From: Candidatus Nanoarchaeia archaeon
Lineage (GTDB): Archaea; Nanobdellota; Nanobdellia; Woesearchaeales; DATDTY01
Reading direction: 5' to 3'
Assembly: GCA_035290625.1 (NCBI GenBank)
Contig: DATDTY010000043.1
Span: 1-55,221 of the forward strand
DNA: 55,221 bases
Both the position numbers and the translations under genes were made by a program. Below the pieces are notes generated by a model. That model had not been told where the DNA came from. It did no database searches and saw nothing but the letters and a program-made list of their open reading frames with translations. Below are positions 17,522 through 47,898 of the stretch, one piece after another (position 1 is the stretch's first letter; each line of letters opens with the position of its first letter).

Positions 17522-17566
17522 AGATGAGAAGAAGTGCTTTGTGTTTTTATTCGTTGCCCTTCATCG

Positions 17567-17723
17567 GGCTTCCCTGAAAATCTCTTCGAGGTTGCCGTCG
17601 GCTCGGCTGCAAAGGTTACAGGGATGACCGACATTCCCCGTAAGGGACGTCCCCCTTGTCAGTTTCATGTCTGTAGTTTAAGAGCCTCGCATACTTGACG
17701 GCAACACCATTTTCAGGGAAGCC
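17567..17723 (+). mobile_element. structured MITE-like element, copy 1 (157 bp)
   Basis: TIR GGCTTCCCTGAAAA / TTTTCAGGGAAGCC. Perfect 9-bp direct repeats CCTTCATCG at 17558-17566 and 17724-17732. Shares its architecture with seven other copies. Confidence 0.8.
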
Positions 17724-18165
17724 CCTTCATCGCCTGCGCGTACTCCCTGACACGGGAAAGGATCGAAGTGAGGTAATACTTATGAATCCGCTCTTCAAAT
17801 ATCCTTTCGAGAGTGTCGCCTTCTGCAATCCTGTAATTGCCGTCAACCTTTTCTATCAGGAATATGTCCTTCAGGCGCTTGAGCTGGCGGCGGATATTTG
17901 AGGCTGCCACACCATGCATGGGAATGTTGAGCTCCTTCCTGCGCAGCCTGAGCTGCCCCTCAAGATCTGCGGCTGAGATCCCTTTTTGGCATTCCAGGAT
18001 GAGATGGAAGATGTCAATGATGCTGTCCCTGGAATCTCCAGGAGAAAGCAGGCCAAGGGAAAGGAGAAATTTTTTTGTAAGCTCTCTCTTGTCGGCATTC
18101 TGCTGCGGCTTTTCGTATTTCCGGAGCGTGATCTCTGCAAGGGGTATTTCCTTAGAGACTCTCAT
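17713..18165 (-). CDS. winged-helix transcriptional regulator (hypothetical family)
   Basis: 150-aa ORF with wHTH-like IPMHGVAASNIRRQLKRLKDIFLIEKV. The last codons and the stop lie inside element copy 1. Confidence 0.5.
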   Translation of the reverse strand: MRVSKEIPLAEITLRKYEKPQQNADKRELTKKFLLSLGLLSPGDSRDSIIDIFHLILECQKGISAADLEGQLRLRRKELNIPMHGVAASNIRRQLKRLKDIFLIEKVDGNYRIAEGDTLERIFEERIHKYYLTSILSRVREYAQAMKGLP

Positions 18166-18213
18166 AGGTGTTTTGGATGGAATATCTTATTTAAATGTTT
18201 GGGAGTTTTGAGC

Positions 18214-18358
18214 GGCTCAGTAGCAAGTCAATAGGCATCAGGCTCGCTTGTGCTTGCATCTGTGATTGCTGACACCCCCGAAGGGACCTACCCTCTGTCA
18301 GCACTGCTCATGACTGCGAAGAAGCTCGCAGAAAAGATGCTGGACTTGCTACTGCGCC
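18214..18358 (+). mobile_element. structured MITE-like element, copy 2 (145 bp)
   Basis: TIR GGCTCAGTAGCAAGTC / GACTTGCTACTGCGCC. Flanking 9-mers GTTTTGAGC / AGCTTGAGC match 6/9. By-eye alignment shows it is collinear with copy 8 over the full 145 bp. Confidence 0.75.
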
Positions 18359-19557
18359 AGCTTGAGCGCGACCTTCTTCCCAAGAAGCGATCTCACCATC
18401 TCCTCAATCTCCTCTTTATGCCTGAGAAGGTCTATGCGCTTGAGCTCATGTTCAAGCCTGGCAATCTCAGCTTGGGAACCGGCTGTCTGCTGCTCCTGAT
18501 CATGAAGGGCTTTCTGAAGTTGCCTGCGAGCTGCCTCGAATGTGCTTCTGTTGAGCCTGGATGCTGTTGCATCATGCAGCTCACGTGCCTGCTGCAGCAT
18601 ATCCTGATAATGCCTGAGGCGCCCTCTGCTGGTTGCATCTATAGCTTGGGATGCCTTTTCAATTTTCTTTTGGAGCTGGAGTGAGGGGAGCATTATCTTG
18701 AGGCTGGAGAGCGCTCCAAGGATTTCCAGCTTTTGGTCATTCATGAGCGCTTCAACGGGGTCCATGATGTACGCTGAAATCATATCTGGGTGTTCTGCAA
18801 GCCTTGAATACTTCCGAAGGGGCTTGTCGAGCGGAAGGAATAGATCGCGTATTTCTGCCTGGCCGCTTTTTACTGCAGCATCAGCCTCATGGAGCTGATC
18901 CTGCAAGGCTGCGTATTCTTTGCGGGCATCGCTCGAGTCAAGATCTTTTAACTGCTGATGCAATTTCAGGCTCTGAGCCCGCTGCTGTTCAAGGGAAGCA
19001 TTCTCTCTCTGGATAGCTAATGTAATCTCCTTTTTTCTTTGCAGAGCATTGAGAAGCTGGCTGGTATGCTTCATGATTTGCTGAGCAAGCTGCTGCGGGC
19101 TTTTGCTTGAGATCTCACCAGACTCTTTTACAAGAAGACTGATATCATGAAGCTTTTCAGTTATGGCCCGGGTTTCATGGCTGAAGAATTCCTGGAGGAT
19201 ATGGTAGGATCGTTGCGTTGCCTTTCCGAATTGGTCAAGGCTTTCATCGCTCGGGCTTGATTCAAGCTGGCTAATAAGCTGAAGGGCTGCGCGGACGTAC
19301 TGCTGCCGGTTTCCTGCCATGAACTGCTTTTCCTTTGGCGATACGGAGGGGTTGCTGAGCTGGGCATCTCTCAGCTCAGTTACAAGCTGCTTTACTTCTC
19401 TGCATGCGAATCGGATTTCCCTGGCTTTTTTGGCAAGCTTGGCATCTGATTCTCTCTGAAGCGAAGCTACCTGTGCTTGAAGCCAGGCATCGAGGCCATC
19501 AAGGGCAATATCAGGGCTGGCTTCCGGCTTCTTCCTGAAGATATCAAAGAGCCCCAT
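18349..19557 (-). CDS. long coiled-coil protein, N-terminus MGLFDIF (PspA/ESCRT-III-like start)
   Basis: About 400 aa, Q/E/L/K-rich heptad-like sequence. Internal ATG chosen to give a 14-nt overlap with the upstream gene. The stop TAG lies inside element copy 2. Confidence 0.5.
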   Translation of the reverse strand: MGLFDIFRKKPEASPDIALDGLDAWLQAQVASLQRESDAKLAKKAREIRFACREVKQLVTELRDAQLSNPSVSPKEKQFMAGNRQQYVRAALQLISQLESSPSDESLDQFGKATQRSYHILQEFFSHETRAITEKLHDISLLVKESGEISSKSPQQLAQQIMKHTSQLLNALQRKKEITLAIQRENASLEQQRAQSLKLHQQLKDLDSSDARKEYAALQDQLHEADAAVKSGQAEIRDLFLPLDKPLRKYSRLAEHPDMISAYIMDPVEALMNDQKLEILGALSSLKIMLPSLQLQKKIEKASQAIDATSRGRLRHYQDMLQQARELHDATASRLNRSTFEAARRQLQKALHDQEQQTAGSQAEIARLEHELKRIDLLRHKEEIEEMVRSLLGKKVALKLAQ

Positions 19558-21076: not shown

Positions 21077-21124
21077 TTGCCGGGCGTTTAAAAGAGTTGT
21101 GGGGGGGCTCAGGGGAACACCATT

Positions 21125-21565
21125 TTAGAAGAACCCGAGCAGGGCAGCTATGCAGAAAAATGAGAGTGAAGGGGTGAGCCATGCCTTTATGGATCTGCCT
21201 GCAAGGCTTCCTGCGATGATGCCTGCCAAGAAGATAAGGCTTGCGGCAGCAAGGAATAAAGGAGTTTTTGAAGCAGCGTAGAAGAGCGCGCCAAAGAGCG
21301 GAAAGGCCATCCTCATATAGAGGCTTTCTGCAATGGGGATAAAAGAAGTTGCGAGAGACGCTGCGGCCAGCATTATGCCTGATGGAAAAGAGTTAGTCGC
21401 AGCATAGATGGCAAGGCCGAAAATCAGTGATGTAATGAGCCTGAGGAAGAGGAAAAGATGGCGCCTTCCTGACTCAATTTCCTCTTTTGTGTAGAGGGAG
21501 ATAATTGAGCCGAGAGAGATGCTGAGAGAGACTGCCACAAGCGAAATAGGGTATACAATGTTCAT
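21125..21565 (-). CDS. polytopic membrane protein (hypothetical)
   Basis: 146 aa, almost entirely hydrophobic segments. Confidence 0.45.
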   Translation of the reverse strand: MNIVYPISLVAVSLSISLGSIISLYTKEEIESGRRHLFLFLRLITSLIFGLAIYAATNSFPSGIMLAAASLATSFIPIAESLYMRMAFPLFGALFYAASKTPLFLAAASLIFLAGIIAGSLAGRSIKAWLTPSLSFFCIAALLGFF

Positions 21566-21630
21566 TCTCTGAATAGGGAGTGAGTTATTATATAAGTATT
21601 ACGATAGACAATGTTGATTAAATAAACAGA

Positions 21631-21963
21631 TTATTGCAGAAGGATTGACTCGATGCCTTGTCCTGAATCGTAATCTTGGAACTGCTGGCTATAGGATGGC
21701 TGCTCTGATTTCTCGTATTGCTCAGCCTGGTACAGGAAAATTGAGCCTGCCATGAAGCTCAGGGCAATAACATAGGCCGCAAACGAACTTATGAATGGGT
21801 GTTCTTGGAATGCCTTCTTTATTGGGGCTGCAATGTTGTACTGGAGTTCATCCTTAATACTGTATCCTATCCTTGCCAGCAGAGAAGGTGCCTCTCCTCG
21901 CGGACCCTCCGGATTTTCTTGCCGGGGTTCTGCAGGCCTTGGGTCAAGTCCGATAATGCTCAT
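21631..21963 (-). CDS. hypothetical protein with one TM segment
   Basis: 110-aa ORF with a central hydrophobic helix. Confidence 0.35.
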   Translation of the reverse strand: MSIIGLDPRPAEPRQENPEGPRGEAPSLLARIGYSIKDELQYNIAAPIKKAFQEHPFISSFAAYVIALSFMAGSIFLYQAEQYEKSEQPSYSQQFQDYDSGQGIESILLQ

Positions 21964-21994
21964 TGTGAGAGAATATTTGTGTCAGGTATTTAAG

Positions 21995-22711: not shown

Positions 22712-22734
22712 TATTTAATGTTTGCTGAAGATGC

Positions 22735-23211: not shown

Positions 23212-23435
23212 TGGGGTGGAGTTTGCCGTTTATAAACCTTCCTATTTTAATTACTTGTGAGTAAGTACTTTTCTCTTGGCTTTCCATTTACTTTTCCATT
23301 AAGTATCTTATTTGAGGGTTGGCAGAGAACAAGTACGGCATAGGCAACCAACATGATGAAGAGGTAATCCTCAAGAGGGCAATTAGAAAGAAAGCATGAG
23401 TTCAATAATGAGATAGTCCCTAAATCTGCATATAC

Positions 23436-23633
23436 GGCACAGTAGAAAGTCTCGCTGTGGCTTGCGAGTGATCTCCTTCTCACTCGCTCACAAGCCACCG
23501 GTTGCCACTAGGTTCGACTCGAAATGGTTACCTGTAAACCGACATATCCCCGATGGGGCATCCCCCTTGTCGGTGCTCATCAGATGAGCTAAAAGTCTCA
23601 CAAAGGGTGGCAACGACGACTTTCTACCGTGCC
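23436..23633 (+). mobile_element. structured MITE-like element, copy 3 (198 bp)
   Basis: TIR GGCACAGTAGAAAGTC / GACTTTCTACCGTGCC. Extra hairpin at 23457-23498. Direct repeat TGCATATAC (23427-23435) / TGCTTATAC (23637-23645), the latter displaced by 3 nt. Confidence 0.75.
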
Positions 23634-23652
23634 ACCTGCTTATACAAATACT

Positions 23653-23660
23653 TTTATATA
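23653..23660 (+). promoter_or_regulatory. TATA box TTTATATA for the M64-like peptidase gene
   Basis: 23 nt upstream of ATG 23684. Confidence 0.5.
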
Positions 23661-28930: not shown

Positions 28931-29752
28931 TTAAAGGTTACGAGCTGTGTCCAGAATTGTGTGGGCATTTTTTGAATTGAGATGGAATTGCAGCGATGAT
29001 TCGTCTTTTCCAAGCAAGACGCGAATCTTCATCTGAAGGAGGCTTGCTTCGGCGTTTGGGATTCTTGCCTGCTGGTCCGCAACAATGAGGCCATAGGGAT
29101 AGCCAAGGAATGCCGGGTCTGAGCAATGGCTCAGGATGAGGGATAGGGTTTCTGGATGAAGCGTGTCGACACGGAAAAGATATTTTGCTTTCGGGTGGAA
29201 TTTAACGAGGTAGGAATGATTGCCGAGGCTGGAGTAGCAGGCAGAACCGCAGCTGAGCAAATCTTTTGCTGCAGGAATTTTGCCGGATGTCTTGCTTACT
29301 GCAATGAGCCCTGGATCATTGAGCTCCAGGATGCGGCCGTGATCAATTCCGGTTGCTGCATCCAAGCTTCCGTCGATAATTGTGGTTTGAGGTTTGTTTC
29401 GGAGAGCGCAGGCTAGCTCTGCTTCCCTTCGGAGAGCATCGATTGAGGTGAATGGGATCTCGGAAGGGAAGCTGCAGGCCCCTTGTAGGGGGTATATGGA
29501 TGCCGTATCTCCCCGGACAAGGGCAAAAAAATCTGAGATGCTGGTGGAGACCCGCTTTTCCCTCCAAAGCACTGATGCGGTCCTGATCAGGTGAAGCGAG
29601 AAGGCTGCCGATGACAAGATTTCTGCATTTCCTCCGTCTATGAAACAGAGATCGCTTCGGGAGGGAGTTGCCTTGATTGGTTGGATGCCCGAGGATGCGG
29701 ACTCTAGCCGGATCGTGCTGCGAAGCTCATGGAGAAGGGCTGGATTGATCAT
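28931..29752 (-). CDS. hypothetical protein, possible NurA-like nuclease fold
   Basis: FIDGGN ... REAE ... IIDGSLD ... NAHTILD resemble the NurA D/E/D/H motifs. Weak by-eye call. Confidence 0.3.
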   Translation of the reverse strand: MINPALLHELRSTIRLESASSGIQPIKATPSRSDLCFIDGGNAEILSSAAFSLHLIRTASVLWREKRVSTSISDFFALVRGDTASIYPLQGACSFPSEIPFTSIDALRREAELACALRNKPQTTIIDGSLDAATGIDHGRILELNDPGLIAVSKTSGKIPAAKDLLSCGSACYSSLGNHSYLVKFHPKAKYLFRVDTLHPETLSLILSHCSDPAFLGYPYGLIVADQQARIPNAEASLLQMKIRVLLGKDESSLQFHLNSKNAHTILDTARNL

Positions 29753-29840
29753 TGATGGGGAAAAAGATTGCAGGTATTATAAGGTTGCGCTCGGAAGGGT
29801 GATGAGTTGCCTGTTCTCTTATTATAAAGCCTCGTTTTCC

Positions 29841-29994
29841 AGCCACGTTCAGAATCTTCCAGGTGAGCGCCAGGTTCGGTTCCGAGTGTTTTGCGAATAT
29901 ATCGACATATCCCTGTGAGGGACGACCCCCTTGTCGATGCTCATTCTTTGGAATATTGACCTCACAAATGGGCGCTCACCTTCTGAATGCCGTC
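29841..29994 (+). mobile_element. structured MITE-like element, copy 4 (about 154 bp)
   Basis: Helices 29848-29853/29982-29987 and 29861-29871/29971-29981. Core ATCGACA..CCCTGTGAGGGACGACCCCC..TGTCGAT. Flanked by TCGTTTTCC / GCCTTTTCC (7/9). Outer boundaries are least certain in this copy. Confidence 0.65.
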
Positions 29995-30003
29995 GCCTTT
30001 TCC

Positions 30004-30222
30004 GGTGGCATTGAAAAGTCATGCAATGCCCTTTGTGAGCCTTCTATTCAAAGTACAGAACAGCGACAAAGGGGGTGCTCAACCAAAACGCCTTCTGGCG
30101 GTTTGGTGTGCCAAAAGAGCATGGCTCTTTTTAGCACCATACGGGAAATGTCGCTTCCCATGAGAGTATGCGCAAGGCGAAGTCGGCATTGCCGAACGAA
30201 GTGAGCAACTTTTCAATGCGAC
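30004..30222 (-). mobile_element. structured MITE-like element, copy 5 (219 bp, opposite orientation)
   Basis: TIR GGCATTGAAAAGT / ACTTTTCAATGC. Flanked by GCCTTTTCC (29995-30003) / CCCTTTTCC (30223-30231). The core loop carries an insert of about 50 nt with two extra hairpins. Confidence 0.75.
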
Positions 30223-30237
30223 CCCTTTTCCACAACA

Positions 30238-30245
30238 TTTATATA
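30238..30245 (+). promoter_or_regulatory. TATA box TTTATATA
   Basis: About 45 nt upstream of the small zinc-ribbon ORF. Lies directly after the right flank of copy 5. Confidence 0.4.
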
Positions 30246-30289
30246 GTTCCGTGGGAACGCATTTTTATAGATAGATTTGTAAAGATGAG

Positions 30290-30418
30290 GTGATTTCTAT
30301 CTATACAGACGATGGACCTGATACCTGTGCCTATTGCGGAACGTTAATCGACCCTGAAGAGCGCCAGTGCCCGAATTGCGGAGAAAATGTTTCTGAAGGG
30401 AACATGGATCTCTATTAG
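30290..30418 (+). CDS. small zinc-ribbon protein (42 aa, GTG start; not in the ORF track)
   Basis: Hand translation VISIYTDDGPDTCAYCGTLIDPEERQCPNCGENVSEGNMDLY with a CxxC-x10-CxxC pattern. Confidence 0.35.
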   Translation: MISIYTDDGPDTCAYCGTLIDPEERQCPNCGENVSEGNMDLY

Positions 30419-30460: not shown

Positions 30461-30847
30461 ATGGCACTATTTCATAAAAGAGTCACTGCCGCTTCGCCAG
30501 ATCTGCCTCAAATTTCTGAGGTGGTAGTGAGTATGAGGAAGCGCATCCAAGCATTGCACGATCTGGAGCGTACATTGACGTCGCATATGCAGGCCCGCGC
30601 TGCCTCGGTTGAAATCCAGCTTAACCAGGATTTGTCAGATGCCCAGCTTCTTGAAGAGGAGTTTGCCTTGCTTAGGCAGGAGACTCATCAAAAGGCAGAA
30701 TTAGTGAATCAACTTATTGCCAAACTCAAGCAGTGCGTTTTGGAGGAGGAGTTCCAGGAGATTAAGAAGCTGCTGGAGAAGCTGGATCCTGCTGAGATGA
30801 TTACACAAAAAGAATTCGTTGGCATGCTCCAAGAGCGTGAATCATAA
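30461..30847 (+). CDS. coiled-coil hypothetical protein
   Basis: 128-aa ORF rich in E/L/Q. No motif recognised. Confidence 0.4.
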   Translation: MALFHKRVTAASPDLPQISEVVVSMRKRIQALHDLERTLTSHMQARAASVEIQLNQDLSDAQLLEEEFALLRQETHQKAELVNQLIAKLKQCVLEEEFQEIKKLLEKLDPAEMITQKEFVGMLQERES

Positions 30848-32131: not shown

Positions 32132-32218
32132 GCCCGGAGAGAGGAAGTTTGAGTATTTATAGGTTCTTGTTCCTGGTTGTGTAATTGCGTTGAGGAACTA
32201 TTGGGTTTGCTGGGTTTC

Positions 32219-32382
32219 TGGCTCCGGTGAAAATCTTGCTTCGCAGCTGCCGCCGGCTCGGCTTGCGCCGTCTTTCTGTATGTATCGTTGAAGCCCCGTA
32301 AGGGACAACCCCCTCAACTCAGTCTATGGCAATCCTTAAGAGCCTCGCAGAGAGGCAGCTGCACTGATTTTCACCGTAGCCT
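32219..32382 (+). mobile_element. structured MITE-like element, copy 6 (164 bp)
   Basis: TIR GGCTCCGGTGAAAATC / GATTTTCACCGTAGCC. Flanking CTGGGTTTC (32210-32218) / TTGGGTTTC (32383-32391). Core stem is GTTGA/TCAAC instead of CGACA/TGTCG. Confidence 0.8.
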
Positions 32383-32434
32383 TTGGGTTTCGAAACATTT
32401 AAAATGATGAGAGGCTTTCTGTTTCTGGGGGGAA

Positions 32435-39429: not shown

Positions 39430-40056
39430 ATGATGGGAAGATTAGCTGAGCTTGTGAAGAATACTGAGGGGCTGAAGATAGCAATCATGAGCTATGAGGA
39501 TACAAATCTAGAGATTATCTGCATGTCCAACAAGTATTATTCAGAGCATTTGCAGTTGCTTAAAAGGCCTAAGGAAAGGAAGAAAATCTCAGAACGTGAG
39601 TTTCATGAAAGGCTGTGGGGTTATCTCTGGAACGAGAAGGTGAGCCAGCTTTTGATTATTTTATATCTTGAGGAGTTACGGGGGGTTAATCCAACAATCT
39701 GGGAATTGAACAAGCTGCTCAAGAGGACTTCAAAGCAATACTCAGCAACATTCAAACAGGTGTCTAAGTTGGAGAAGCTAGATATTGTGCATACGAAGGA
39801 TGTTGCGTCTTCTCCAAGAAAGGAAAAAGAAGTTTTTATAAACAAAAAGATTGTTACGGTTTACGGCGATGATGAGTTTCGGAAGATGATGCTTGAGGAT
39901 TGGGATGGCGATGCGAAAGCTTACATTGAGATGAAATTGAGGGGGCTGCTGGAAGAGAAAGAAGAGTTTGAGAGGAAGATTGAGAGGGTAAGGGAGGGGA
40001 AACGGGGGAAAAACAAGAAGGGGGCGATGAAAGATGGAAGAGTCAGAGGTACTTAG
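39430..40056 (+). CDS. wHTH-containing hypothetical regulator with basic C-terminal tail
   Basis: LIILYLEELRGVNPTIWELNKLLKRTSKQYSATFKQVSKLEKLDIV is ArsR-like. The start is overlapped by a 12-bp inverted repeat (39375-39386 / 39419-39430). Confidence 0.45.
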   Translation: MMGRLAELVKNTEGLKIAIMSYEDTNLEIICMSNKYYSEHLQLLKRPKERKKISEREFHERLWGYLWNEKVSQLLIILYLEELRGVNPTIWELNKLLKRTSKQYSATFKQVSKLEKLDIVHTKDVASSPRKEKEVFINKKIVTVYGDDEFRKMMLEDWDGDAKAYIEMKLRGLLEEKEEFERKIERVREGKRGKNKKGAMKDGRVRGT

Positions 40057-41038
40057 CTATGTGCAGATATGCATAGAAAAGTTATGCAACAAGTTTAGGA
40101 AAAATCCAGAATATTTCATTAGTATGGAGCAAGATTTAGTTGCTTACCTTTATCATTTGATTGCTATGAATCCTTTCTTCCTCGATGAAATAGAGTATAC
40201 TACTGAAGATGGCGAAAAGATTAAAACAAAATTAATAGAAACCCAAACGCGTACGTTTGCTCTAGTGAATACTAAGGTTGGCAGATTTGATTTAACTGTC
40301 CTCAACCCTAAACAAGAGGTGGGCGAAAAAGAGAATTTGATAGCTATAGAATTTAAATGGATTGGTAGATTATACGAGAGGGATGTTTTAGATATTAAAA
40401 AGGATTTGGATAAATTAAATAATAAAGAAAATGAGGTTAAGTGGGGATATCAGCTAATATTTTCTTCTGATAAGAGGCTTACCGAAGAAGGTAAGTCTGA
40501 AATTCTAACCTACAATAAGAATCAATCCACGAAGATATTGTTTATAGAAAGAGGAAAACCTTTGGAGGGAAAAATGACAGGAATGAAACCTAAAGTATTG
40601 TTGTTTAAGTATAATAAGGACAGATGGGGAGAAATTGAGGATATAAAAAGAGTATTTGAAGCTGATGAATATGATTATCAGCCCAATAAGTTAGCAAGTT
40701 ATGGAATAGAACCAGAAGATAAGGACAGATGTTTGGGTATATTGAAGGACACAATGGAAATATGTTTTATTTGCAGGATTAGAAAACCATCGCAGGACGA
40801 AAATGGAGAATTTGATTTTGTTGATCCCTTATTCTTTGAGAATCCGTTAGATTTCAAAACTATGTCTACTGAGCCACTTTACAAATTGTTCAGGCCAAGC
40901 GGAACAGGAGAATTAACGAGAGCTGTTTTATTTAATCTCTCTGAATTTAGCGAACATTTAGAGGAGATTAAGGAGAAGTTGATCCAGTTAAATCCAAGCC
41001 AGTCAGGAGAAATCAGAAAATATTTTGTGGAGAATTAA
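40034..41038 (+). CDS. PD-(D/E)xK nuclease-fold protein with unknown C-terminal domain
   Basis: GRFDLTVL...LIAIEFKW gives a D...E-x-K arrangement. Overlaps the upstream gene by 23 nt. Confidence 0.4.
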   Translation: MEESEVLSYVQICIEKLCNKFRKNPEYFISMEQDLVAYLYHLIAMNPFFLDEIEYTTEDGEKIKTKLIETQTRTFALVNTKVGRFDLTVLNPKQEVGEKENLIAIEFKWIGRLYERDVLDIKKDLDKLNNKENEVKWGYQLIFSSDKRLTEEGKSEILTYNKNQSTKILFIERGKPLEGKMTGMKPKVLLFKYNKDRWGEIEDIKRVFEADEYDYQPNKLASYGIEPEDKDRCLGILKDTMEICFICRIRKPSQDENGEFDFVDPLFFENPLDFKTMSTEPLYKLFRPSGTGELTRAVLFNLSEFSEHLEEIKEKLIQLNPSQSGEIRKYFVEN

Positions 41039-41087
41039 TTATAACAATAAGCGATAACTGGATATTTTTATACCACCCCATACACCC

Positions 41088-41249
41088 TCAATCTTCCTCG
41101 CAAAGTTCATGGACTGCAATATCTCTATCCCCATACCTCAATCCGCAAATATCACAATATAAGTAAAAAAATTTGTCTTTCCATTTGCCATTTATGTATT
41201 TGGATTCTGTTGCAGTATTCTTAGATTTATCTTTGACATATTTTTTCAT
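41088..41249 (-). CDS. short zinc-ribbon ORF (53 aa), truncated paralogue of the 38818-39312 N-terminus
   Basis: Hand translation MKKYVKDKSKNTATESKYINGKWKDKFFYLYCDICGLRYGDRDIAVHELCEED, compare MKRYVKNKSKYTSSETQCINKEWITRYFCLYCDICGKRYSD. ATGA overlap with the upstream ORF. Confidence 0.4.
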   Translation of the reverse strand: MKKYVKDKSKNTATESKYINGKWKDKFFYLYCDICGLRYGDRDIAVHELCEED

Positions 41250-41707
41250 TCCCAGTTAATGCCCTCTTTATGATAAAAAACCATTAGATAAATATCCTTA
41301 TTCCTAATAGGTTTAGTGCCGTATCTGTTTATCAAAGCGGTGTTTATACATAATTCCTCGTTATAAACACAGCTTTTATCAAGCAAAACATCAAAAGCGA
41401 ATCTTTCTATGCTTTTTTGCTGGACTAATCTTTTCTGAGTATACTGCCTGATGAAAGGAAAGAATACGATTATGCCATTATATTTCCATCCATTAGATAC
41501 ATCTTTTGCCCCCCTCATTATAATTTTGGCAGTTGTTTCAAACTCAGGGGTATTGTATTCTTCTTTTGTAATCTTCTTATGATATACTTTGTAGCCAGAT
41601 TCCTCAAAAGCCTCGATTGATTTTTTGACCAAATCAAATCTGTTTAAAGCAATATATCTCATAATAAACTCGCCAAAAAAATTAACCGGCGTTGGAGTTG
41701 GGCACAT
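41246..41707 (-). CDS. hypothetical protein
   Basis: 153-aa ORF. No motif recognised. Confidence 0.4.
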   Translation of the reverse strand: MCPTPTPVNFFGEFIMRYIALNRFDLVKKSIEAFEESGYKVYHKKITKEEYNTPEFETTAKIIMRGAKDVSNGWKYNGIIVFFPFIRQYTQKRLVQQKSIERFAFDVLLDKSCVYNEELCINTALINRYGTKPIRNKDIYLMVFYHKEGINWE

Positions 41708-41716
41708 AAAAGAGCC

Positions 41717-41947
41717 TCATTCTCCTTTTTGCAGTTTGCGCCATCTTGGTGTCTTCCTGTTATAAACTAAATCATTTATCTTTTCCAGCGCCAGTGCGTA
41801 AACATAGAGATTGCGCTCCATCCTCTTCTTTTCTTTTCTTGGAGAAAGCAGGATAAGGCCAGCTCTGCCGTCTTTCAATGGCTCCCACTTGATCGGAATA
41901 AATTCCTTCCCTGCTTTGTCAATAATCCTTTTTATTTTTGCTTGCAT
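41717..41947 (-). CDS. small basic hypothetical protein
   Basis: 76-aa ORF, 9 nt upstream of the next ORF. Confidence 0.35.
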   Translation of the reverse strand: MQAKIKRIIDKAGKEFIPIKWEPLKDGRAGLILLSPRKEKKRMERNLYVYALALEKINDLVYNRKTPRWRKLQKGE

Positions 41948-42319
41948 TTTATTAGACCTCTCAAGAAAGGATCGCTCAAATCAACAGCTTTCCTTCTCTT
42001 TCGTTTAATCTTTCGTTTAATGAATCCTAATTCTTCCAAATCCTTAAATAACTGCATTTCGACCATTATACAAATATTAAGACAGGATCCTTATCGGTGG
42101 TGTAGCCTGCCTCAAACCTAATTTTTTCAATATTTTCATTTTTCATCACCTTTAATGGCTTGGAAAACTCTCTTATTTAAATATCTTTCTATTTAATAGT
42201 ATAAATTCTACTAAATAATAGAAAAATATAAATAACGGCTGCGTTTACTATCGCTTATGGATAAATTTATTAATGATACGCCTCTTCTACTGCCTTATAT
42301 AGCAACAAGAGGGGTGGAA

Positions 42320-42916
42320 ATGAAGAAAGTCCTTATCGCTACACTCTACAAGCCAGAGCCTGTGCTTTTGGCTTCAAACAGGCTTGGACCTGACAGATTG
42401 ATTCTTTTGCTTGATAAAGAGCCGAATAAAGAGCAGGAGGCTTCGTTTAAGCTGATCAAGGAGTCGCTTGGAAAGGTGATTGATGTCAAGGCTGCCAAGA
42501 CAGAGGTGTATGATATTGTGGCTATAGCCAAGCAGTGCGTTGAAATCATTGATATGCAGCCTTCTGAGGATCATATTTATATCAATATTACATCAGGAAG
42601 GAAGACCAAGGCTTTTGGCGTGTTGCTTGGAGCCTATGCCAGAGCTGACAAGGTAAAGAAGATAGCCTATAACCCGGAGGATTCGAAGACTGTCGTGTAT
42701 TTGCCCAAGCTTTCTTTTAAATTAAATGAATCACAGAAGAAGGTTCTTGAGGTCGTTGAGAAGCACACTTCATTGTCTCTTGCAGAAATGGCTGAGAAGA
42801 GCTCCTTGAGCCCTGCGATGTTCTACAGGAGTGTGAATGAATTAAGGGATATGGATCTCCTTATCACTGAGCCTGAGATCTCATTAACTGATGCAGGAAG
42901 GATAGCGAGGCTGTAA
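42320..42916 (+). CDS. Csa3-like protein: CARF-type Rossmann domain plus C-terminal wHTH
   Basis: N-terminal beta-alpha pattern ending in INITSGRKTKAFGVLLG (compare Csa3 DLTMGMR...LLG), then wHTH LSLAEMAEKSSLSPAMFYRSVNELRDMDLL. GAGGGGTGG SD before ATG 42320. Confidence 0.45.
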   Translation: MKKVLIATLYKPEPVLLASNRLGPDRLILLLDKEPNKEQEASFKLIKESLGKVIDVKAAKTEVYDIVAIAKQCVEIIDMQPSEDHIYINITSGRKTKAFGVLLGAYARADKVKKIAYNPEDSKTVVYLPKLSFKLNESQKKVLEVVEKHTSLSLAEMAEKSSLSPAMFYRSVNELRDMDLLITEPEISLTDAGRIARL

Positions 42917-42942
42917 AAAAGCAACAAATTAAAACACAAAAA

Positions 42943-43809
42943 ATGAAAAAAGAAATCATCCAACGGCTGCAGAAATCATTTGAGGACTACTCCCAGAAAG
43001 CAGAGGATATTGAATTCTGGTTTGCGAGAGACTTGCAGGCATTGCTCGATTATAATGACTGGAGAAATTTTGTGAATGTGATAGAAAAAGCAGAAATTGC
43101 CTGCAAAAGTTCAGGGCAGGAAGTCCAAGACCATTTCGTTGATATCACCAAAAAGGTCAAGATAGGCTCTGAAGCAGAGAGAGAAATTGAAGATATAATG
43201 CTGACAAGATACGCCTGCTATCTTATTGCGCAGAACGGCGACCCAAGAAAAGAGCAAATAGCATTCGCGCAGAGCTATTTTGCCGTCCAGACAAGAAAGC
43301 AGGAATTGATTGAGCAAAGGATAGATTTGATAGAAAGAATGAACGCGAGGCAGAAGCTTGCCGCATCAGAAACAGAGCTATCAAAGCTGATTTATGAAAG
43401 AGGGGTAGATGAAGATGGCTTTGCAAGGATAAGAAGCAAGGGAGATAAGGCCTTATTTGGTGGGTTTACTACTTCGCAAATGAAAAGCAGGCTAAGGATC
43501 CCGAAAAGCAGACCGTTGGCAGATTTCCTCCCAACTATTACAATAACGGCAAAAAATCTTGCAACTGAAATAACCAACTTTAATGCCAAGAAAGAGGATT
43601 TAAAGGGAGAAAACAATATAACTTATGAGCACATAAAGAACAACACAGATGTCAGAAGACTTCTTGCAAAGAGTGGCATAAAGCCCGAAGAGCTTGCGCC
43701 TGAAGAAGATATAAAGAAGCTTGAAAGAAGGGTAAAGAAAGACGAAGAATTGATTGGGAAGAAATCCAAGAAGATATCCAGAGATAAGGGAAAGATTGCG
43801 AGGCTGTGA
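42943..43809 (+). CDS. dinD: DNA damage-inducible protein D (DinD)-like
   Basis: EFWFARDLQALLDYNDWRNFVNVIEKAEIACKSSG...DHF...LTRYACYLIAQNGDPRKEQIAFAQSYFAVQTRKQE matches my recollection of DinD-family sequence. Confidence 0.65.
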   Translation: MKKEIIQRLQKSFEDYSQKAEDIEFWFARDLQALLDYNDWRNFVNVIEKAEIACKSSGQEVQDHFVDITKKVKIGSEAEREIEDIMLTRYACYLIAQNGDPRKEQIAFAQSYFAVQTRKQELIEQRIDLIERMNARQKLAASETELSKLIYERGVDEDGFARIRSKGDKALFGGFTTSQMKSRLRIPKSRPLADFLPTITITAKNLATEITNFNAKKEDLKGENNITYEHIKNNTDVRRLLAKSGIKPEELAPEEDIKKLERRVKKDEELIGKKSKKISRDKGKIARL

Positions 43810-44045
43810 AGGCTTCTGTGAGATCATACGATAAACTGAAGTTTCCTGGGAAGAATGAGCCGGCAAGGGAAGAGTTGGATACGCTGATAAAGAAGCTTGG
43901 ATTATGGGACGAGCTGGCTGTTTTGGACACCTATGAACTTGCCAAGAGAATCAATAACAGAGGATTGCATGATGATTTTTTGAAGCTGATTCAGAAGTTT
44001 ACTGTTAAGGAGATTATGGATGTTGTGAGGTTGGAGAGGAAGTGA
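43806..44045 (+). CDS. small hypothetical protein
   Basis: 79-aa ORF. GTG start overlaps the dinD-like stop (GTGA). Confidence 0.35.
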   Translation: MKASVRSYDKLKFPGKNEPAREELDTLIKKLGLWDELAVLDTYELAKRINNRGLHDDFLKLIQKFTVKEIMDVVRLERK

Positions 44046-44136
44046 AGAACGAGCTTCAAAACTTGATTTCTTGTGAATGAAAACAACAAGCTTTTTAAAT
44101 CTCAACCCCTCTGGTCACAAAAAAGAGGTGAATCCT

Positions 44137-44394
44137 ATGGTATTCCAGAAATTCAAGATCGCGCCGTTGCCTTCAACATTTATGCTGACGAGCATTATCG
44201 GATTTCTTGTCTCAGTGATTTGGGTTGGAAAGTACGATACGAGCTATGGATTTGCCTTCGGTTTGGTGTTTGGAATTATGTTTATAGCGTCGCTTGTATC
44301 AATGACCTATGCGCCAGTAGGGGATGAATTGCAGATTGATATGGGGCGCGTAAAAGCCGGCAAAGATAGGAGGAATAGGGCTGCAAAGAGGTAG
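44137..44394 (+). CDS. small two-TM membrane protein
   Basis: Internal ATG preceded by GAGGTGA at 5 nt. Two hydrophobic helices and a basic tail. Confidence 0.45.
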   Translation: MVFQKFKIAPLPSTFMLTSIIGFLVSVIWVGKYDTSYGFAFGLVFGIMFIASLVSMTYAPVGDELQIDMGRVKAGKDRRNRAAKR

Positions 44395-44417
44395 ATTCTG
44401 AGGTTATGGCTCGATTC

Positions 44418-44623
44418 GGCTTCCCTGAAAATCTCGTAAACGCCCGGGTTGCCGCCAGTACTCAAAAATGCTCCACATTTTTGGTCGCTCCTTCGGAGCA
44501 GTTCGATTGCGCTGTTTCTCCTGTGGACCGACATTCCCCGCAGGGGGCAACTCCCTTGTCGGTACTGATGTCTTGATTTTAAGCCTCACAAAAAGGGCGG
44601 CAACCTTCACTTTCAGGGAAGCC
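44418..44623 (+). mobile_element. structured MITE-like element, copy 7 (206 bp)
   Basis: TIR GGCTTCCCTGAAAA / CTTTCAGGGAAGCC. Perfect 9-bp direct repeats GCTCGATTC at 44409-44417 and 44624-44632. Two extra hairpins between P2 and the core. Confidence 0.8.
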
Positions 44624-44668
44624 GCTCGATTCGCAAAGGTTTTATAGTCAGGCGGATTTGCCTTTTGC

Positions 44669-46399
44669 ATGAGGTTTCAGCTGATTGTTCTTCTTGCTCT
44701 GGTTCTGCTTCCGACGGCAGATGCTGCGAAACAGGGACGCATTAAGCTGCTGGCTGCAAAAGAAGGCCTGAATGGAACGTTTGTTGGAAGCACTGCAGAC
44801 CTTTTTCTTGAGATACAAGAGGGGAGCGGCAGGGTCTTTCTGGATACCTTTCCGCTCACAAAGGTTGACACACAGATCTCCACGCGATTTGCCAAGGAGG
44901 TTGCCTGCAACTACCTGGATTATGCCTGCGATGGCTATGACTTCATCTATACCATCAGGGCAGATTCCTCTATCATTGGAGGCCCAAGCGCAGGAGCTGC
45001 AGCAGCAGCCTTAACTGTTGCCTTGCTGGATGGTATCACCATTAATCAGGACATCGCCATAACAGGAACGATAAACTCTGGAGGGGTCATAGGGCCTGTA
45101 GGCGGGATACTGGCAAAGATAGATGCCGCCAAGGAAGGCGGGGCCGCAGTAGTGCTGGTTCCAAAGGGAGAGGGAGGCCAAAAAAGCGGAAACAGCAGCA
45201 TTGATGCCAGGGAATATGGGGAAAATCTCAATATCACAGTTATTGAGGTCTCAAGCCTGGATGAAGTGCTATCCTATTACACCGGGGCCAGCATTCCGGA
45301 GATTGATAATGTGAGCGCTGACCAGGGCTATCAGGAAGCGATGCGGCAAATCTCTGAGAGATTCTGCAACCGGAGCAGCCAATTGGGAAAGAATCTTGAT
45401 GAGAAGGATCAATCTGTGAGCAGGGGGAGAAACCTTACATTGAGAGGAGAGGAGGCTATGAAGCTGGGAGACTTTTATTCTGCAGCATCGTATTGTTTTG
45501 GGGCTAATGTGCAGTTTACAGCAGCTTCACTCCTAGGGCAAAACCTTTCAGCAGGAGAATTGCTGGATCTTGTAAAGCAGGGAGAGAAAAGTGTGCGGGA
45601 CTTCGGCAGCAGGATCAGCAAGGAAGAGAAGAAAACACTAACGGATCTCCAGAGCTCTATGATTATTCGAGAGCGTCTTGATGAGTCTCGTGATGTATTT
45701 ACAAAGGCGAGATTGCAGCTCTTGAACGGAACTCAACCCTATCAGGACATTGCCTATGGATTCGAGCGGATCTACACTGCTTCTGCGTGGAGCGTATTTT
45801 TTAACCATCAAGGGAGAGCCTATGATCTGGATCCGGACAAGATTAAGGATGCCTGCATTAATAAGCTGCTCGAGGTTGAGGAACGGATGCAGTATATCAG
45901 CTTGGTGTTCCCCGTTCAGCAGGAAAATGATGACTTGAAGTATGCCAATGCGGATTATGAGAAAAAGGATTATGAGATGTGCCTGTTCCGGGCTTCAAAG
46001 GCAAAGGCATCTGCAGACATTATCATGGCTGTTTTGGGGCTGGAGGATGGTCCTGCGGTGGATGATGTGATTGAGCAAAAGCTGCGCGCCGCAAAGAAGA
46101 GCCTGGCAAGGCAGGCAAAGAAGGGAATTTTTCCGATTCTGGCATACTCCTATTATGAATATGCAAACTCCTTAAAAACCCAGGACAGATATTCGAGCTT
46201 GCTGTTCGCAGAATATAGCCTGGAGCTTTCGCAGCTTGATGCCTATTTTAAGGAAAAGAAGGCTTATGCCGGGTTTTCGCTGGATACTGAAAAAGTAGAG
46301 ATATTCCTCCTTGGGCTCGCAGTTGGCATTGGATCGTTGAGCCTTGGACGCATTATCGCAGAAAGAAAAAGGAAACATGTGGAGCGGCGTTTTTTATAG
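44669..46399 (+). CDS. secreted/anchored S16 (Lon-type) serine protease domain protein with helical C-terminal region and TM anchor
   Basis: Signal peptide, Lon catalytic GGPSAGAAAA and GGILAKIDAAKEGG (Ser-Lys dyad context), C-terminal TM plus RKRKH. Confidence 0.7.
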   Translation: MRFQLIVLLALVLLPTADAAKQGRIKLLAAKEGLNGTFVGSTADLFLEIQEGSGRVFLDTFPLTKVDTQISTRFAKEVACNYLDYACDGYDFIYTIRADSSIIGGPSAGAAAAALTVALLDGITINQDIAITGTINSGGVIGPVGGILAKIDAAKEGGAAVVLVPKGEGGQKSGNSSIDAREYGENLNITVIEVSSLDEVLSYYTGASIPEIDNVSADQGYQEAMRQISERFCNRSSQLGKNLDEKDQSVSRGRNLTLRGEEAMKLGDFYSAASYCFGANVQFTAASLLGQNLSAGELLDLVKQGEKSVRDFGSRISKEEKKTLTDLQSSMIIRERLDESRDVFTKARLQLLNGTQPYQDIAYGFERIYTASAWSVFFNHQGRAYDLDPDKIKDACINKLLEVEERMQYISLVFPVQQENDDLKYANADYEKKDYEMCLFRASKAKASADIIMAVLGLEDGPAVDDVIEQKLRAAKKSLARQAKKGIFPILAYSYYEYANSLKTQDRYSSLLFAEYSLELSQLDAYFKEKKAYAGFSLDTEKVEIFLLGLAVGIGSLSLGRIIAERKRKHVERRFL

Positions 46400-46537
46400 A
46401 GAATTTTGATTAACCTCTTATTTGCCAAAATTCTCTAAGAGAACTTTGAATAAGACTGATGGGAGCCATGGGTTATTCAAAGTCCTCTATAGAACTTTTG
46501 TTGTTTAAAACCCAGAAAAGGCCTTCTTGCGAAGGCC
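46397..46537. repeat. five alternating copies of an 11-12 nt motif (TAGAGAAYTTTG) forming two stem-loops, plus a GC hairpin
   Basis: 46397-46408(+), 46426-46437(-), 46438-46452(+), 46474-46489(-), 46490-46500(+). Hairpin GGCCTTC-TTGC-GAAGGCC at 46520-46537. Confidence 0.6.
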
Positions 46538-46701
46538 CTTAATGGGAAAAAGAGGTGATCTTGAAATCCCCCAACATTGATACTACAATTAGATAGATAA
46601 GCTTATATTTAAATCTTTCTATTATAATCTATTGCTAAGTAGTTACAAAATACTGTCTTTGTGCGAGAAAGCTTATAAATGCCAAATTTAACCCTTATAG
46701 G

Positions 46702-47706
46702 ATGAAAGGCATTGCAATGTGTTTTGGGCTGGTTATCATTCTTGCGGCAATAATGGCCTGGCTGGCGGAGCCGGAGGCTGCGATTACTGGAATGGCTATA
46801 GAGCCTGCAGAGGCAGAGTTCCTCTATAAGCTTTATTTCTGCCCGAGGGATGATTGCTATGCGGCTATCGTGACGCTGGTGAACAGCTCAGAACGATTTG
46901 TTCACTGCGGCCTCTTTGACCTGAGGCTGGAAGGCCTGATTGGTCTCCTTGATGCAAAGTCTAAGGAAGTAGAGGTCAAGGTCGTAGTGGATGATACGAA
47001 CTACAAGCATGTGGAAAAGAGAAGATGGGCAAAAAAGGACACAAGCAGCCAGCTTTCCCATAACAAATTCTGTGTCATTGACGGAAAAATGGTCTCCACA
47101 GGATCCATGAACCCAACGGAAAATGATGCTGCGAGGAACAATAATAACCTTATTGTGATTGAATCAATGCTTCTGGCAGAGAACTATGAGGATGAGTTCC
47201 AGGAGCTCTGGAGCGGCGAGTTTGGCAGCGGCAGAAGGGTGAAGAATCCTGTGGTTTCTCTGGGAGGGACCAGGATTGAGAATTATTTTTGCCCTGAAGA
47301 TTCCTGCGCAAAGCATGTTGAGGAAGTGATTTCGCGAGCCAATGAATCTGTTTTGTTCATGGCTTTCTCCTTTACAAAGGAGTCTATTGCTGATGCCTTG
47401 CTGTTTTCTAACGCTTCTGTTAAAGGAGTTGTTGAGAAACGGGGCTCTGGCTCGGAGTATTCCCAGTTTAACCGCTTAAAGGGATTCGGAGTCGATGTTG
47501 TCACTGATACCAATCCTTATACGATGCACCACAAAGTCTTTATTATCGATGAAAAGATTGTTGTGACTGGATCATTCAACCCGACGGGGTCAGGAGATTA
47601 CAGAAATGATGAGAATATCCTTATACTCCATAATGAAGAGATCGCGAAGAGGTTTACAGAGGAATTTGGGTATGTGCGGCCAGAAAGCCCTGCCAATACG
47701 CAATAA
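46702..47706 (+). CDS. phospholipase D-superfamily protein (two HKD motifs), N-terminal TM
   Basis: HNKFCVIDGKMVSTGSMNPT and HHKVFIIDEKIVVTGSFNPT. Confidence 0.8.
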   Translation: MKGIAMCFGLVIILAAIMAWLAEPEAAITGMAIEPAEAEFLYKLYFCPRDDCYAAIVTLVNSSERFVHCGLFDLRLEGLIGLLDAKSKEVEVKVVVDDTNYKHVEKRRWAKKDTSSQLSHNKFCVIDGKMVSTGSMNPTENDAARNNNNLIVIESMLLAENYEDEFQELWSGEFGSGRRVKNPVVSLGGTRIENYFCPEDSCAKHVEEVISRANESVLFMAFSFTKESIADALLFSNASVKGVVEKRGSGSEYSQFNRLKGFGVDVVTDTNPYTMHHKVFIIDEKIVVTGSFNPTGSGDYRNDENILILHNEEIAKRFTEEFGYVRPESPANTQ

Positions 47707-47709
47707 AAC

Positions 47710-47854
47710 AGCTCAGTAGAAAGTCAGTCGGCATCGGGCTCGCTTGCGCTTCCTTCACTGTTTGCTGACACCCCCGAAGGGGCCTACCCTCTGTCAGCAG
47801 TGGTTATGGGCGTGAAGAAGCTCGCAGAAAGGATGCCGGACTTTCTACTGATCC
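47710..47854 (+). mobile_element. structured MITE-like element, copy 8 (145 bp)
   Basis: TIR AGCTCAGTAGAAAGTC / GACTTTCTACTGATCC. Perfect 9-bp direct repeats CAATAAAAC at 47701-47709 and 47855-47863. The left repeat contains the PLD gene stop codon. Confidence 0.8.
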
Positions 47855-47898
47855 CAATAAAACGCAATGCATAAAAGATACATCCAATTTCTCTCCTT

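Follow-up and report, generated by a model that had tools for sequence, protein, structure and literature searches.

Eight related elements in the window

The window, i.e. the whole stretch of 55,221 nucleotides that was analysed, contains eight related elements of 145-219 bp, all of them intergenic, each with terminal repeats (TIRs), flanking direct repeats and a structured interior, and each next to the promoter of a neighbouring gene (Table 1). A preliminary description, made from the letters alone, had named the same eight copies; an nhmmer profile and an unfiltered search with a covariance model both returned exactly these over the full 55 kb, and neither found a ninth. The core pattern matches 6 of the copies, while shuffles lead one to expect 0. 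With eight copies in 55 kb the density is indeed very high, as had been remarked, and corresponds to about 145 per Mb. A census of MITEs in archaeal genomes places a woesearchaeal one, with 105 per Mb, among the densest (Nadal-Molero et al. 2024, PMC11602168); that work is a bulk catalogue, and it is not known to describe the structure, the partner insertion sequence or the promoter register of the present family.

Table 1. Elements c1-c8 (putative MITEs), their flanking repeats and the adjoining promoter elements
Feature	Position	Strand	Remarks
c1 element	17567..17723	+	TIR GGCTTCCCTGAAAATC
c1 duplication CCTTCATCG	17558-17566 and 17724-17732		perfect 9-bp
BRE/TATA faced by c1 left end	about 17543-17557	minus	promoter of gene 16367-17521(-)
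c2 element	18214..18358	+	TIR GGCTCAGTAGCAAGTC, partner-IS type; flanking 9-mers 6/9
TATA TTTAAATA faced by c2 left end	about 18188-18195	minus	gene 17713-18165(-); 3 bp off usual register
c3 element	23436..23636	+	TIR GGCACAGTAGAAAGTC; additional hairpin between TIR and P2
c3 duplication TGCATATAC / TGCTTATAC	23427-23435 / 23637-23645		8/9 if ACC (23634-23636) is counted as element; profile/model match 23436-23633(6)
TATA TTTTATATA downstream of c3	23652-23660	+	preceded by AAATAC; gene starting 23684(+)
c4 element	29841..29994	+	degenerate TIRs; direct repeats 7/9
TATA TTTATAAT faced by c4 left end	about 29822-29829	minus	gene 28931-29752(-)
9-mer common to c4 and c5	29995-30003		between the abutting c4 and c5
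c5 element	30004..30222	-	end-to-end with c4; direct repeats 8/9
c5 apex insertion	30081-30137		57 bp, two hairpins; missing in one strain (L002)
c5 flank	30223-30231		followed by ACAACA
TATA TTTATATAG beyond c5	30238-30246	+
c6 element	32219..32382	+	core stem changed to GTTGA/TCAAC
c6 duplication	32210-32218 and 32383-32391		8/9
TATA TTTAAAAT downstream of c6	32398-32405	+	preceded by GAAACA; gene starting 32435(+)
c7 element	44418..44623	+	additional hairpin; TIR type as c1 (GGCTTCCCTGAAAATC)
c7 duplication GCTCGATTC	44409-44417 and 44624-44632		perfect
TATA GTTTTATAG downstream of c7	44639-44647	+	preceded by GCAAAG; gene starting 44669(+)
c8 element	47710..47854	+	TIR AGCTCAGTAGAAAGTC, partner-IS type
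c8 duplication CAATAAAAC	47701-47709 and 47855-47863		perfect
Weak TATA CATAAAAGA downstream of c8	47870-47878	+	preceded by GCAATG; gene starting 47899(+)

The flanking repeats had been given as perfect in three copies, which are c1, c7 and c8, and as 7-8/9 in most others. The latter is true of c4, c5 and c6, it is true of c3 only if ACC is counted as part of the element, and it fails for c2 with just 6/9. The conclusion that this is a non-autonomous mobile element is upheld by the TIRs and the 9-bp duplications.

The partner insertion sequence and the family at large

The copies had been recognised neither as an Rfam family nor as IS-derived MITEs. The first part stands, since the proposed scan with Rfam 15 gave 0 matches at the gathering score over the whole window, and at E<=10 the segment 17400-18500 gave chance-level matches only. 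The second part does not: the preliminary description had suggested looking for an autonomous partner and held that a match to an IS end would speak against its reading, and an IS5-family insertion sequence (IS) of 888-912 bp (790 bp in one copy) shares both TIRs and duplication length with the elements. We found 41 IS loci in related Woesearchaeota/Nanoarchaeota MAGs and Rifle aquifer metagenomes; some are from JGI 3300025323 (Ga0209542), a metagenome that also contains the genome of the window, others from Rifle C687J samples. ISs and MITEs have common 16-bp terminal repeats, GGCTC[T/A]GTAG[A/C]AAGTC, the ISs ending GGC...GTAGAAAGTC as the MITEs do, and the duplication is 9 bp long in both, with perfect copies among the ISs. 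In one MAG a 165-bp MITE (L017) and a 901-bp IS with a DDE_Tnp_1 ORF (L062) have identical TIRs. Within the window, the TIRs of c2, c3 and c8 are of the same type as those of the 888-912 bp ISs, that of c8 being identical to the IS in L150 at 15 of 16 bases and those of c2 and c3 differing at 1-2 bases; for the TIR types of c1/c7, c4, c5 and c6 no matching IS was found among the 41 loci.

The best NCBIfam match of the transposase is NF033579 (IS5 family) with 93 bits, below the 140-bit cutoff. Among its best 12 of 106 plasmid matches are haloarchaeal IS5 elements (22-30% identity) and no IS903-type or enterobacterial records. No transposase had been seen in the window, and tblastn with the partner-IS transposase, the sole query used, likewise finds no relative there. 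The MITE core is absent from the IS copies, so the interior of the MITEs is not derived from the IS. The TIRs also require a different reading of one earlier observation. The paired change that distinguishes c2 (C) from c8 (A), which can be read directly in the copies, had been taken as compensatory, but the same change occurs at both ends of different IS copies. It reflects the matching transposase; TIR "covariation" therefore tracks transposase lineage and not RNA pairing.

Altogether, 119 distinct copies were collected from 100 sources, and the family occurs widely in Woesearchaeota/Nanoarchaeota MAGs. The canonical length is 163-169 bp, with ends GGC...GCC, and 26 copies have 9-bp flanks that are perfect or have one mismatch. 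Since the core motif served as bait for most loci, its invariance among them is partly by construction; copies recovered without the core pattern mostly retain it. The proposed check for empty sites found none: c1-c7 are carried by all strains sampled, and comparison with as many as 24 contigs of other samples showed no presence/absence polymorphism (for c8 a usable contig was lacking). Indirectly, insertions that arose independently at numerous different sites across many MAGs suggest that the family is mobile. Taking these results together, we consider it likely that the eight elements are MITEs, i.e. short non-coding passengers that an IS5-family IS mobilises in trans through its DDE transposase.

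Position of the insertions relative to promoters

The order found at the insertions is element end, 9-bp duplication, about 6 nt (nnAAnn, BRE-like) and an outward-pointing TATA box. A TATA-like 8-mer begins 16 nt beyond the element end in 29 of 42 MITEs (positional peak 0.30-0.36 versus a background of about 0.05), and the same register is found in 19 of 25 parent ISs. All eight copies in the window adjoin such a promoter, exactly or within 3 bp, and in six of them the start codon is 45-53 bp from the element end. ISs and MITEs have a common target, a 9-bp site at the BRE's upstream edge, ~6 bp ahead of the TATA box. The target also has a symmetric component, which relative to the duplication consists of TT at -4/-3 and AA at +3/+4, where TT(T) spans -4..-2.

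This fixed BRE/TATA register is the most unusual feature of the family, and it was absent from the preliminary description.

An insertion of this kind would leave the core promoter intact every time, which may provide a safe landing site in a tightly packed genome. The duplicated 9-mer beside the TATA box would presumably stay a valid target, and this would explain tandem copies with one common 9-mer such as c4 and c5.

The interior fold

The interior is a rod-like quasi-palindrome with the conserved apex CCCCG-N3-GGGRC-N2-CCCCC, and the copies have folding energies of -55 to -85 kcal/mol (family z-score about -7.7). The modular plan with compensatory helix changes that had been reported can be read directly in the inner helix P2 of c1, c5, c6 and c8 and in the core stem of c6. 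Pairing is kept even in very divergent copies: 94.7% of the cells are paired versus 76.5% in shuffles, and 261 cells are changed on both sides versus 78, a number reached by 0 of 500 shuffles. For the variable arms, pairing is strongest with the arm's own partner (-11.9 versus -8.1 kcal/mol, p=2e-13). Stems change at a rate of 2-12% and the rest at 18-33%, the changes in stems often being double Watson-Crick ones.

Strand-specific signs do exist, and they are on the strand complementary to the orientation chosen earlier. There the conserved mismatches are tandem G.A and the small loops are GNA/GNNA (GAA, GAAA, GTGA and similar on the minus strand). Tandem GA/GA loops number 55 on the minus strand and 1 on the plus strand, an excess that represents two homologous sites inherited among related copies and not 55 independent events. 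With DNA parameters the minus strand is 1.2 kcal/mol more stable (p=1e-6), whereas RNA parameters give no folding difference between the strands. Pairing is almost purely Watson-Crick, G.U being not enriched over A.C on either strand. The few wobbles, together with the minus-strand G.A pairs and GNA/GNNA loops, fit folding of one strand that is more DNA-like than RNA-like; of the two earlier proposals, RNA or single-stranded DNA, the former is not favoured. We infer that the complementarity of this ~130-nt rod with its conserved apex is actively maintained, and that the rod most likely works as DNA, either in the form of a folded single strand or extruded as a cruciform. The strand with the tandem G.A pairs would be the likelier acting strand, and the rod could join the two element ends or otherwise help propagation.

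An unlikely alternative is that the fold has no function, that template switching at inverted repeats (quasipalindrome correction) restores the complementarity and that the motifs reflect common descent only. The nearly exclusive Watson-Crick pairing, single mismatches without wobble preference and the roughly equal folding of both strands would suit this explanation, and many bacterial and plant MITEs are full-length palindromes with no known function. However, subfamilies with helices that diverged at most positions still share asymmetric features of a kind that template switching should erase, i.e. a 17-nt 5' junction with a mini-hairpin, 2x2 TC/TC (= GA/GA) loops and the C5 bulge. Moreover, other MITE families of the same TIR type have unrelated interiors, so that the repeat mechanism can do without the module, which is nonetheless retained across many different TIR types.

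The interior is probably not a discrete RNA gene either. We regard it as quite improbable that the MITE carries a strand-specific structured ncRNA which acts as a regulator or RNP component and is made from a promoter of its own, by divergent transcription at the adjoining TATA box or within neighbouring transcripts. All of its conserved unpaired motifs, namely the C5/G5 tract, tandem G.A loops and G...A mini-loops, occur commonly in RNAs, the helices covary strongly, and MITEs are oriented 23:7 with respect to the adjacent promoter, a bias that the ISs do not show. Against this, the same ratio is 4:4 among the window copies, no reversed BRE was seen beyond the TATA box, and the G.A strand, in the favoured orientation, is not the one read through from neighbouring genes. 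The lack of G.U excess, the equal strand energies under RNA parameters and the lack of an Rfam match point the same way. In addition, mini-hairpins of the d(GCGAAGC) type are reportedly a hallmark of DNA (Hirao et al.).

Adoption by the host as promoter-upstream modules, i.e. insulators or terminators against read-through or carriers of regulator sites, is similarly improbable: it would explain the fixation of copies in the population and agrees with the place of every window copy directly upstream of a core promoter, with a long hairpin on both strands whose descending arm has a T4-T6 run (from TIR sequences) and with the apex TCCCC-N4-GGGGA being palindromic in duplex DNA, but the parent IS is placed identically, so targeting alone explains the position, and orthologous conservation of any copy across species was not found.

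Comparison with known systems

The partner IS resembles the IS903/IS5 family in its DDE_Tnp_1 transposase, its length of ~0.9 kb, its ~16-18 bp TIRs starting from GGC and its 9-bp duplications. The TIR of one copy starts with GGCTTTGTTGAAA, like the IS903 end, and the partner IS has both the 9-bp duplication and the GGC ends by which ISfinder defines the IS903 subgroup. The palindromic target TT-N2-[9 bp]-N2-AA is comparable to the target motif published for IS903, WTTYA-N9-TRAAW, also with a 9-bp duplication (PMC2577343), the remaining positions of that motif having no clear match. There are differences too. Firstly, the transposase is very distant, being below the NCBIfam cutoff with haloarchaeal IS5 among its best plasmid matches. 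Secondly, the host is a DPANN archaeon, and the target has an extra, one-sided TATA at fixed register. Thirdly, unlike MITE derivatives of the IS5 family, the elements have a conserved structured module, unrelated to the IS, as interior.

Single-strand elements of the IS200/IS605 or REP/RAYT type make no duplication, have subterminal hairpins instead of TIRs and have an orientation tied to the replication strand. This assignment was rejected, given the TIRs and 9-bp duplications and an orientation that is independent of GC skew (50 versus 59 across 109 copies). A replication-strand effect behind the 7 of 8 window copies on the same strand was rejected on the same 109 copies.

Correia elements of Neisseria and ERIC/IRU are imperfect palindromes of 100-200 bp with TIRs and many intergenic, gene-near copies. 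Conserved internal motifs and discrete length variants are further features in common with our elements. The duplication made by Correia elements is TA and the identity of their partner uncertain, in contrast to the clear partner IS and 9-bp duplication of the present family. No Correia or ERIC/IRU element is known to lie at a fixed distance from a promoter element.

Ty3 and other retrotransposons integrate beside Pol III promoters via TFIIIB (TBP and the TFB homologue Brf1). The likeness lies in the fixed short distance from a TBP-bound promoter element, which keeps the gene intact and makes the site a "safe haven" in a compact genome. Ty3-type elements are eukaryotic integrase retroelements with demonstrated protein tethering, in contrast to the DDE DNA transposon found here, for which tethering by TBP/TFB is hypothetical. 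We put forward only tentatively, as a rather doubtful idea, that the IS/MITE family recognises the archaeal pre-initiation complex (TBP/TFB on BRE-TATA) or its DNA bend and inserts at a fixed distance upstream, the rod with its tandem G.A and C5/G5 apex being an adaptation at the level of the element. The rod might then be an end-joining cruciform or single-strand fold, or a transcript that the captured TATA box starts in the reverse direction. Alternatively, the TATA register could come from a direct sequence preference or from survival after insertion. For IS231A, direct reading of A/T-rich, bendable DNA has reportedly been proposed, and by analogy this could be enough for targeting here.

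Significance

Promoter recognition, if true, would give the promoter-tethered integration of Ty3-type elements a counterpart among prokaryotic DNA transposons. The fold, being conserved and strand-marked, is a test case for whether the palindromy of MITEs is selected or merely mechanical, and the TIRs teach that "covariation" in MITE ends should not be taken for RNA structure. In unculturable organisms the elements pinpoint promoters with base-pair accuracy, which is an aid to annotation, and the transposase could be turned into a tool that directs insertions to promoters in archaea. Provided that the register reflects genuine targeting, the family would be, to judge from the literature searched, the first among archaeal transposons to home to core promoters, and it would illustrate how mobile DNA survives in the tiny, gene-dense genomes of DPANN archaea.

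Identity of the elements and their autonomous partner

The eight segments c1-c8 are MITEs with terminal inverted repeats (TIRs), 9-bp flanking duplications and an identifiable autonomous partner, an insertion sequence (IS) of the IS5 family, so the preliminary description was right to call them non-autonomous mobile elements. Its count of eight copies on one plan also stands, as a profile built from the claimed segments recovers those eight with none extra in the window, and a covariance-model check at every window position returns the identical set and no additional copy. Only c5 is on the minus strand, the other seven being plus-strand copies; all eight are intergenic, though c1 contributes the end of an ORF (17713-18165, minus strand). 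The flanking repeats are largely as had been described, i.e. perfect in three copies and 7/9-8/9 in c3-c6, with c2 lower at 6/9 (see the table). Across the family, the 9-bp flanks are perfect or differ by one base in 26 copies at different sites. In c3 (23634-23636, ACC) and c4 (29992-29994, GTC) three extra bases separate the GCC end from the right duplication.

Coordinates of the window copies and of MITEs from other MAGs or metagenome contigs (L-numbers) that have the GGC...AAA TIR type with an unrelated or coreless interior
Element	Position	Strand	Flanking 9-mers	Promoter-facing end	Register
c1	17567-17723	+	perfect	left	exact
c2	18214-18358	+	6/9	left	within 3 bp
c3	23436-23633 (23636)	+	8/9, if three extra right-end bases are counted	right	exact
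c4	29841-29994	+	7/9	left	within 3 bp
c5	30004-30222	-	8/9	left	exact
c6	32219-32382	+	8/9	right	exact
c7	44418-44623	+	perfect	right	exact
c8	47710-47854	+	perfect	right	weak TATA
L126	2768-2880
L126	4892-5070
L102	462-595
L011	3457-3613
L079	7010-7151
L048	997-1141
L088	4173-4316

The partner was recognised in locus L062, where a 901-bp element with TIRs GGCTCTTTAGCAAATGG and a perfect 9-bp duplication encodes a 269-aa DDE_Tnp_1 ORF, and the same MAG carries a 165-bp family member with the same TIRs. A metagenome search with this transposase, whose best match is the IS5 family, but a distant one, gave 41 loci. The ISs are mostly 888-912 bp long (790 bp in a single case), with one ORF each, for a transposase of 263-269 aa, and with perfect 9-bp duplications and TIRs of the form GGCTC[T/A]GTAG[A/C]AAGTC; c2, c3 and c8 have TIRs of this type. 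Several of these ISs come from JGI sample 3300025323, in which the window's genome is present as well, and others from Rifle C687J samples. The MITE core was absent from the IS copies searched for it. For five of the eight window TIR variants, among them the types GGCTTCCCTGAAAATC and GGCTCCGGTGAAAATC, the search gave no partner IS. One earlier claim has to be withdrawn: the paired change in the TIRs of c2 and c8, taken as helix covariation, is a C/A difference that different IS copies likewise have at both of their ends, and therefore mirrors the match to the transposase lineage. Other MITE families combine the same TIR type and 9-bp duplications with unrelated interiors, and one subfamily of 142-157 bp is without the CCCC core. 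A search for empty sites with five neighbouring genes across samples found none.

IS5-family MITEs are known as a kind, and so are structured intergenic repeats such as Correia and ERIC. The literature covered, which is incomplete, contained no account of the present MITE family or of its conserved module, and no report of an archaeal IS homing to BRE/TATA. An Rfam scan gave no match at the gathering threshold over the whole window, nor one above chance level at a relaxed threshold over 17400-18500; a tRNA/tmRNA search gave none either. Integron attC sites were dropped, since the copies lie outside cassette arrays and have TIRs and duplications. A census has already recorded a Woesearchaeal genome with a high density of MITEs (PMC11602168).

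Distribution of the family

The window is archaeal, encoding NurA and an archaeal CCA-adding enzyme; its genes are similar to those of Woesearchaeota MAGs, and nearly identical contigs are present in Rifle aquifer metagenomes. The whole analysis is based on MAGs and metagenome contigs, with most loci fetched by the core motif. A scan for this motif with one genome per species yielded at least 120 loci, nearly all in Woesearchaeota or Nanoarchaeota MAGs, and the covariance model counts at least 119 distinct copies from at least 100 sources. The canonical member is 163-169 bp long, starts with GGC and ends with GCC. Spread across phyla, as hits in 'uncultured Methanosarcinales archaeon' MAGs would imply (L010, L020, L026, L034, L037, L046, L053, L056, L100, L108 and others), was rejected: the contigs share syntenic proteins of 50-77% identity with Woesearchaeota contigs, so that the label is doubtful and, judged from these sequences, looks wrong. 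The 'Thaumarchaeota' label of L013 may be wrong likewise.

Two further observations concern the surroundings of single copies. Metagenome contig L132 (1-1307) matches the window at 99.5% identity as far as the right end of c2 (18358) and is unrelated past that point; either the MITE was the site of a rearrangement or the assembly broke at the repeat. Next to c7, on its upstream side, a Bro-N domain protein is encoded, with small ORFs after it, and G+C falls to 0.35-0.40 at about 40000-44400; this region may be what is left of an integrated mobile element or virus.

A fixed register at BRE/TATA promoters

When the flanks were oriented by the element and examined outward past the duplication, MITEs and ISs were found to share one register at the promoter edge. 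The 9-mer is separated by a spacer of some six bases, whose positions 3-4 are AA, from a TATA box (TTTAAATA or TTTATATA) that starts 16 nt from the element end. Among 41 copies, a strict TATA pattern has exactly this offset in 16 right and 5 left flanks and is nearly absent at other positions; by a looser criterion it is present on one side in 29 of 42 copies, the positional peak reaching 0.30-0.36 where the background is about 0.05. Autonomous ISs take the same register, on either side, in 19 of 25 cases. All eight window copies adjoin a BRE/TATA directed outward to the neighbouring gene, and in six of them the distance from element end to start codon is 45-53 bp, which is in line with archaeal promoters that have short leaders. 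The end at the promoter is the right one in 23 MITEs and the left one in 7, whereas the ISs have no orientation bias and the window copies divide 4 to 4.

The target also has a symmetric part, TT(T) immediately upstream of the duplication and AA immediately downstream. These bases agree with the motif published for IS903, WTTYA-N9-TRAAW (PMC2577343), whose other positions are not clearly matched; the one-sided TATA comes on top of this symmetric part. The TATA-proximal 9-mer would still be a valid target after an insertion, so that repeated hits are expected. Tandems do occur, as elements abutting each other or an IS abutting a MITE with one 9-mer in common (c4/c5 at 29995-30003; similarly L017 2809-3210, L062 4637-4645 and L145 ~1400-1425), and the shared single 9-mers suggest repeated insertion at the same promoter-proximal target.

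At 17713-17732 the minus-strand ORF 17713-18165 has its stop and final codons inside the right TIR of c1. In the reconstructed empty site this ORF would terminate within AATAAAAA, a TATA-like sequence belonging to the next gene, so that the insertion altered its last three residues from GNE to GLP. The interval from c5 to the gene at 30461 contains an unlisted ORF of 42 aa (30290-30418), zinc-ribbon-like with two CxxC pairs, about 20 bp 3' of a second TATA-like box (30263-30271).

A predicted rod with maintained pairing

The helix variants quoted in the preliminary description are legible directly in the copies, and its view that helices change while staying complementary is borne out, as several unrelated sequences are found in P2 and likewise in P5, the outer stem of the core. 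When 37 diverse copies are aligned by MAFFT, an alignment on which RNAalifold was also run, 94.7% of cells are paired, against 76.5% in shuffles and 35-46% with partners slid, and cells changed on both sides number 261 against 78 in shuffles. Copies not fetched by the motif have the stem variants GGTCA/TGACC, GTTGA/TCAAC and GCGC/GCGC, one of them has the apical change TCCC/GGGA to TGCC/GGCA, and the CCCCC tract is retained in each of these variants. Within TIR subfamilies stems change by 2-12%, often as double Watson-Crick changes, against 18-33% elsewhere, a figure inflated by poor alignment of the variable arms. A cloverleaf of three hairpins on a stem was rejected, as minimum-energy folds join the two variable arms, each of which pairs best with its own partner, into a single rod. 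The folding energy is -55 to -85 kcal/mol per window copy and the family-wide z-score against shuffles about -7.7.

Length differences are discrete extra hairpins, as had been claimed, carried by longer copies such as c3, c5 and c7. The apical loop of c5 has a 57-bp insertion of two perfect hairpins (30081-30137), which most strains have and one is without (L002 4880-5095); its sequence was not found elsewhere in the window.

The mismatches that do occur are strand-marked. Conserved internal loops, TC/TC on the strand as originally read, are tandem GA/GA on the opposite strand, and in the predicted folds GA/GA loops number 55 on the opposite strand versus 1 on the other; the loops counted belong to two homologous sites and therefore stand for two conserved features, not 55 events. 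At the 5' junction the opposite strand has a small hairpin, C-GA-xy-[GAA, GAAA, GTGA, GTA...]-y'x'-GA-G, whose inner pairs covary and whose commonest form contains GCGAAGC. Tandem sheared G.A is stable in DNA as well as RNA when the context is Y-GA-R, and so are GNA/GNNA mini-loops with a closing C-G pair; among DNA mini-hairpins, d(GCGAAGC) stands out for its stability. The folded molecule might be an RNA transcribed from the G.A strand, but the mismatches have no wobble preference in P1 (50 G.T, 39 A.C, 87 other) or P2 (13 G.T, 11 A.C, 30 other), and RNA parameters make the two strands alike (-64.6 vs -65.5 kcal/mol, p=0.12). DNA parameters favour the opposite strand by 1.2 kcal/mol (66 vs 29 copies, p=1e-6). 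Replication-strand bias, an idea from the 7/8 copies on one strand, was rejected, as GC skew does not predict orientation.

Probable mechanism

Probably the transposase or its complex reads one side of the target, either as A/T-rich, bendable BRE-TATA DNA or as a promoter bound by TBP/TFB. Insertion at the promoter edge would be tolerated because the core promoter is left untouched. The rod itself might result from purely mechanical correction of palindromes by template switching, or be used by the host as an insulator or regulator. We favour the reading that the element benefits from keeping it. Cruciform extrusion, or folding of single-stranded DNA, is one possible way, as it would bring both ends side by side; a 130-bp duplex does not easily loop to this effect.
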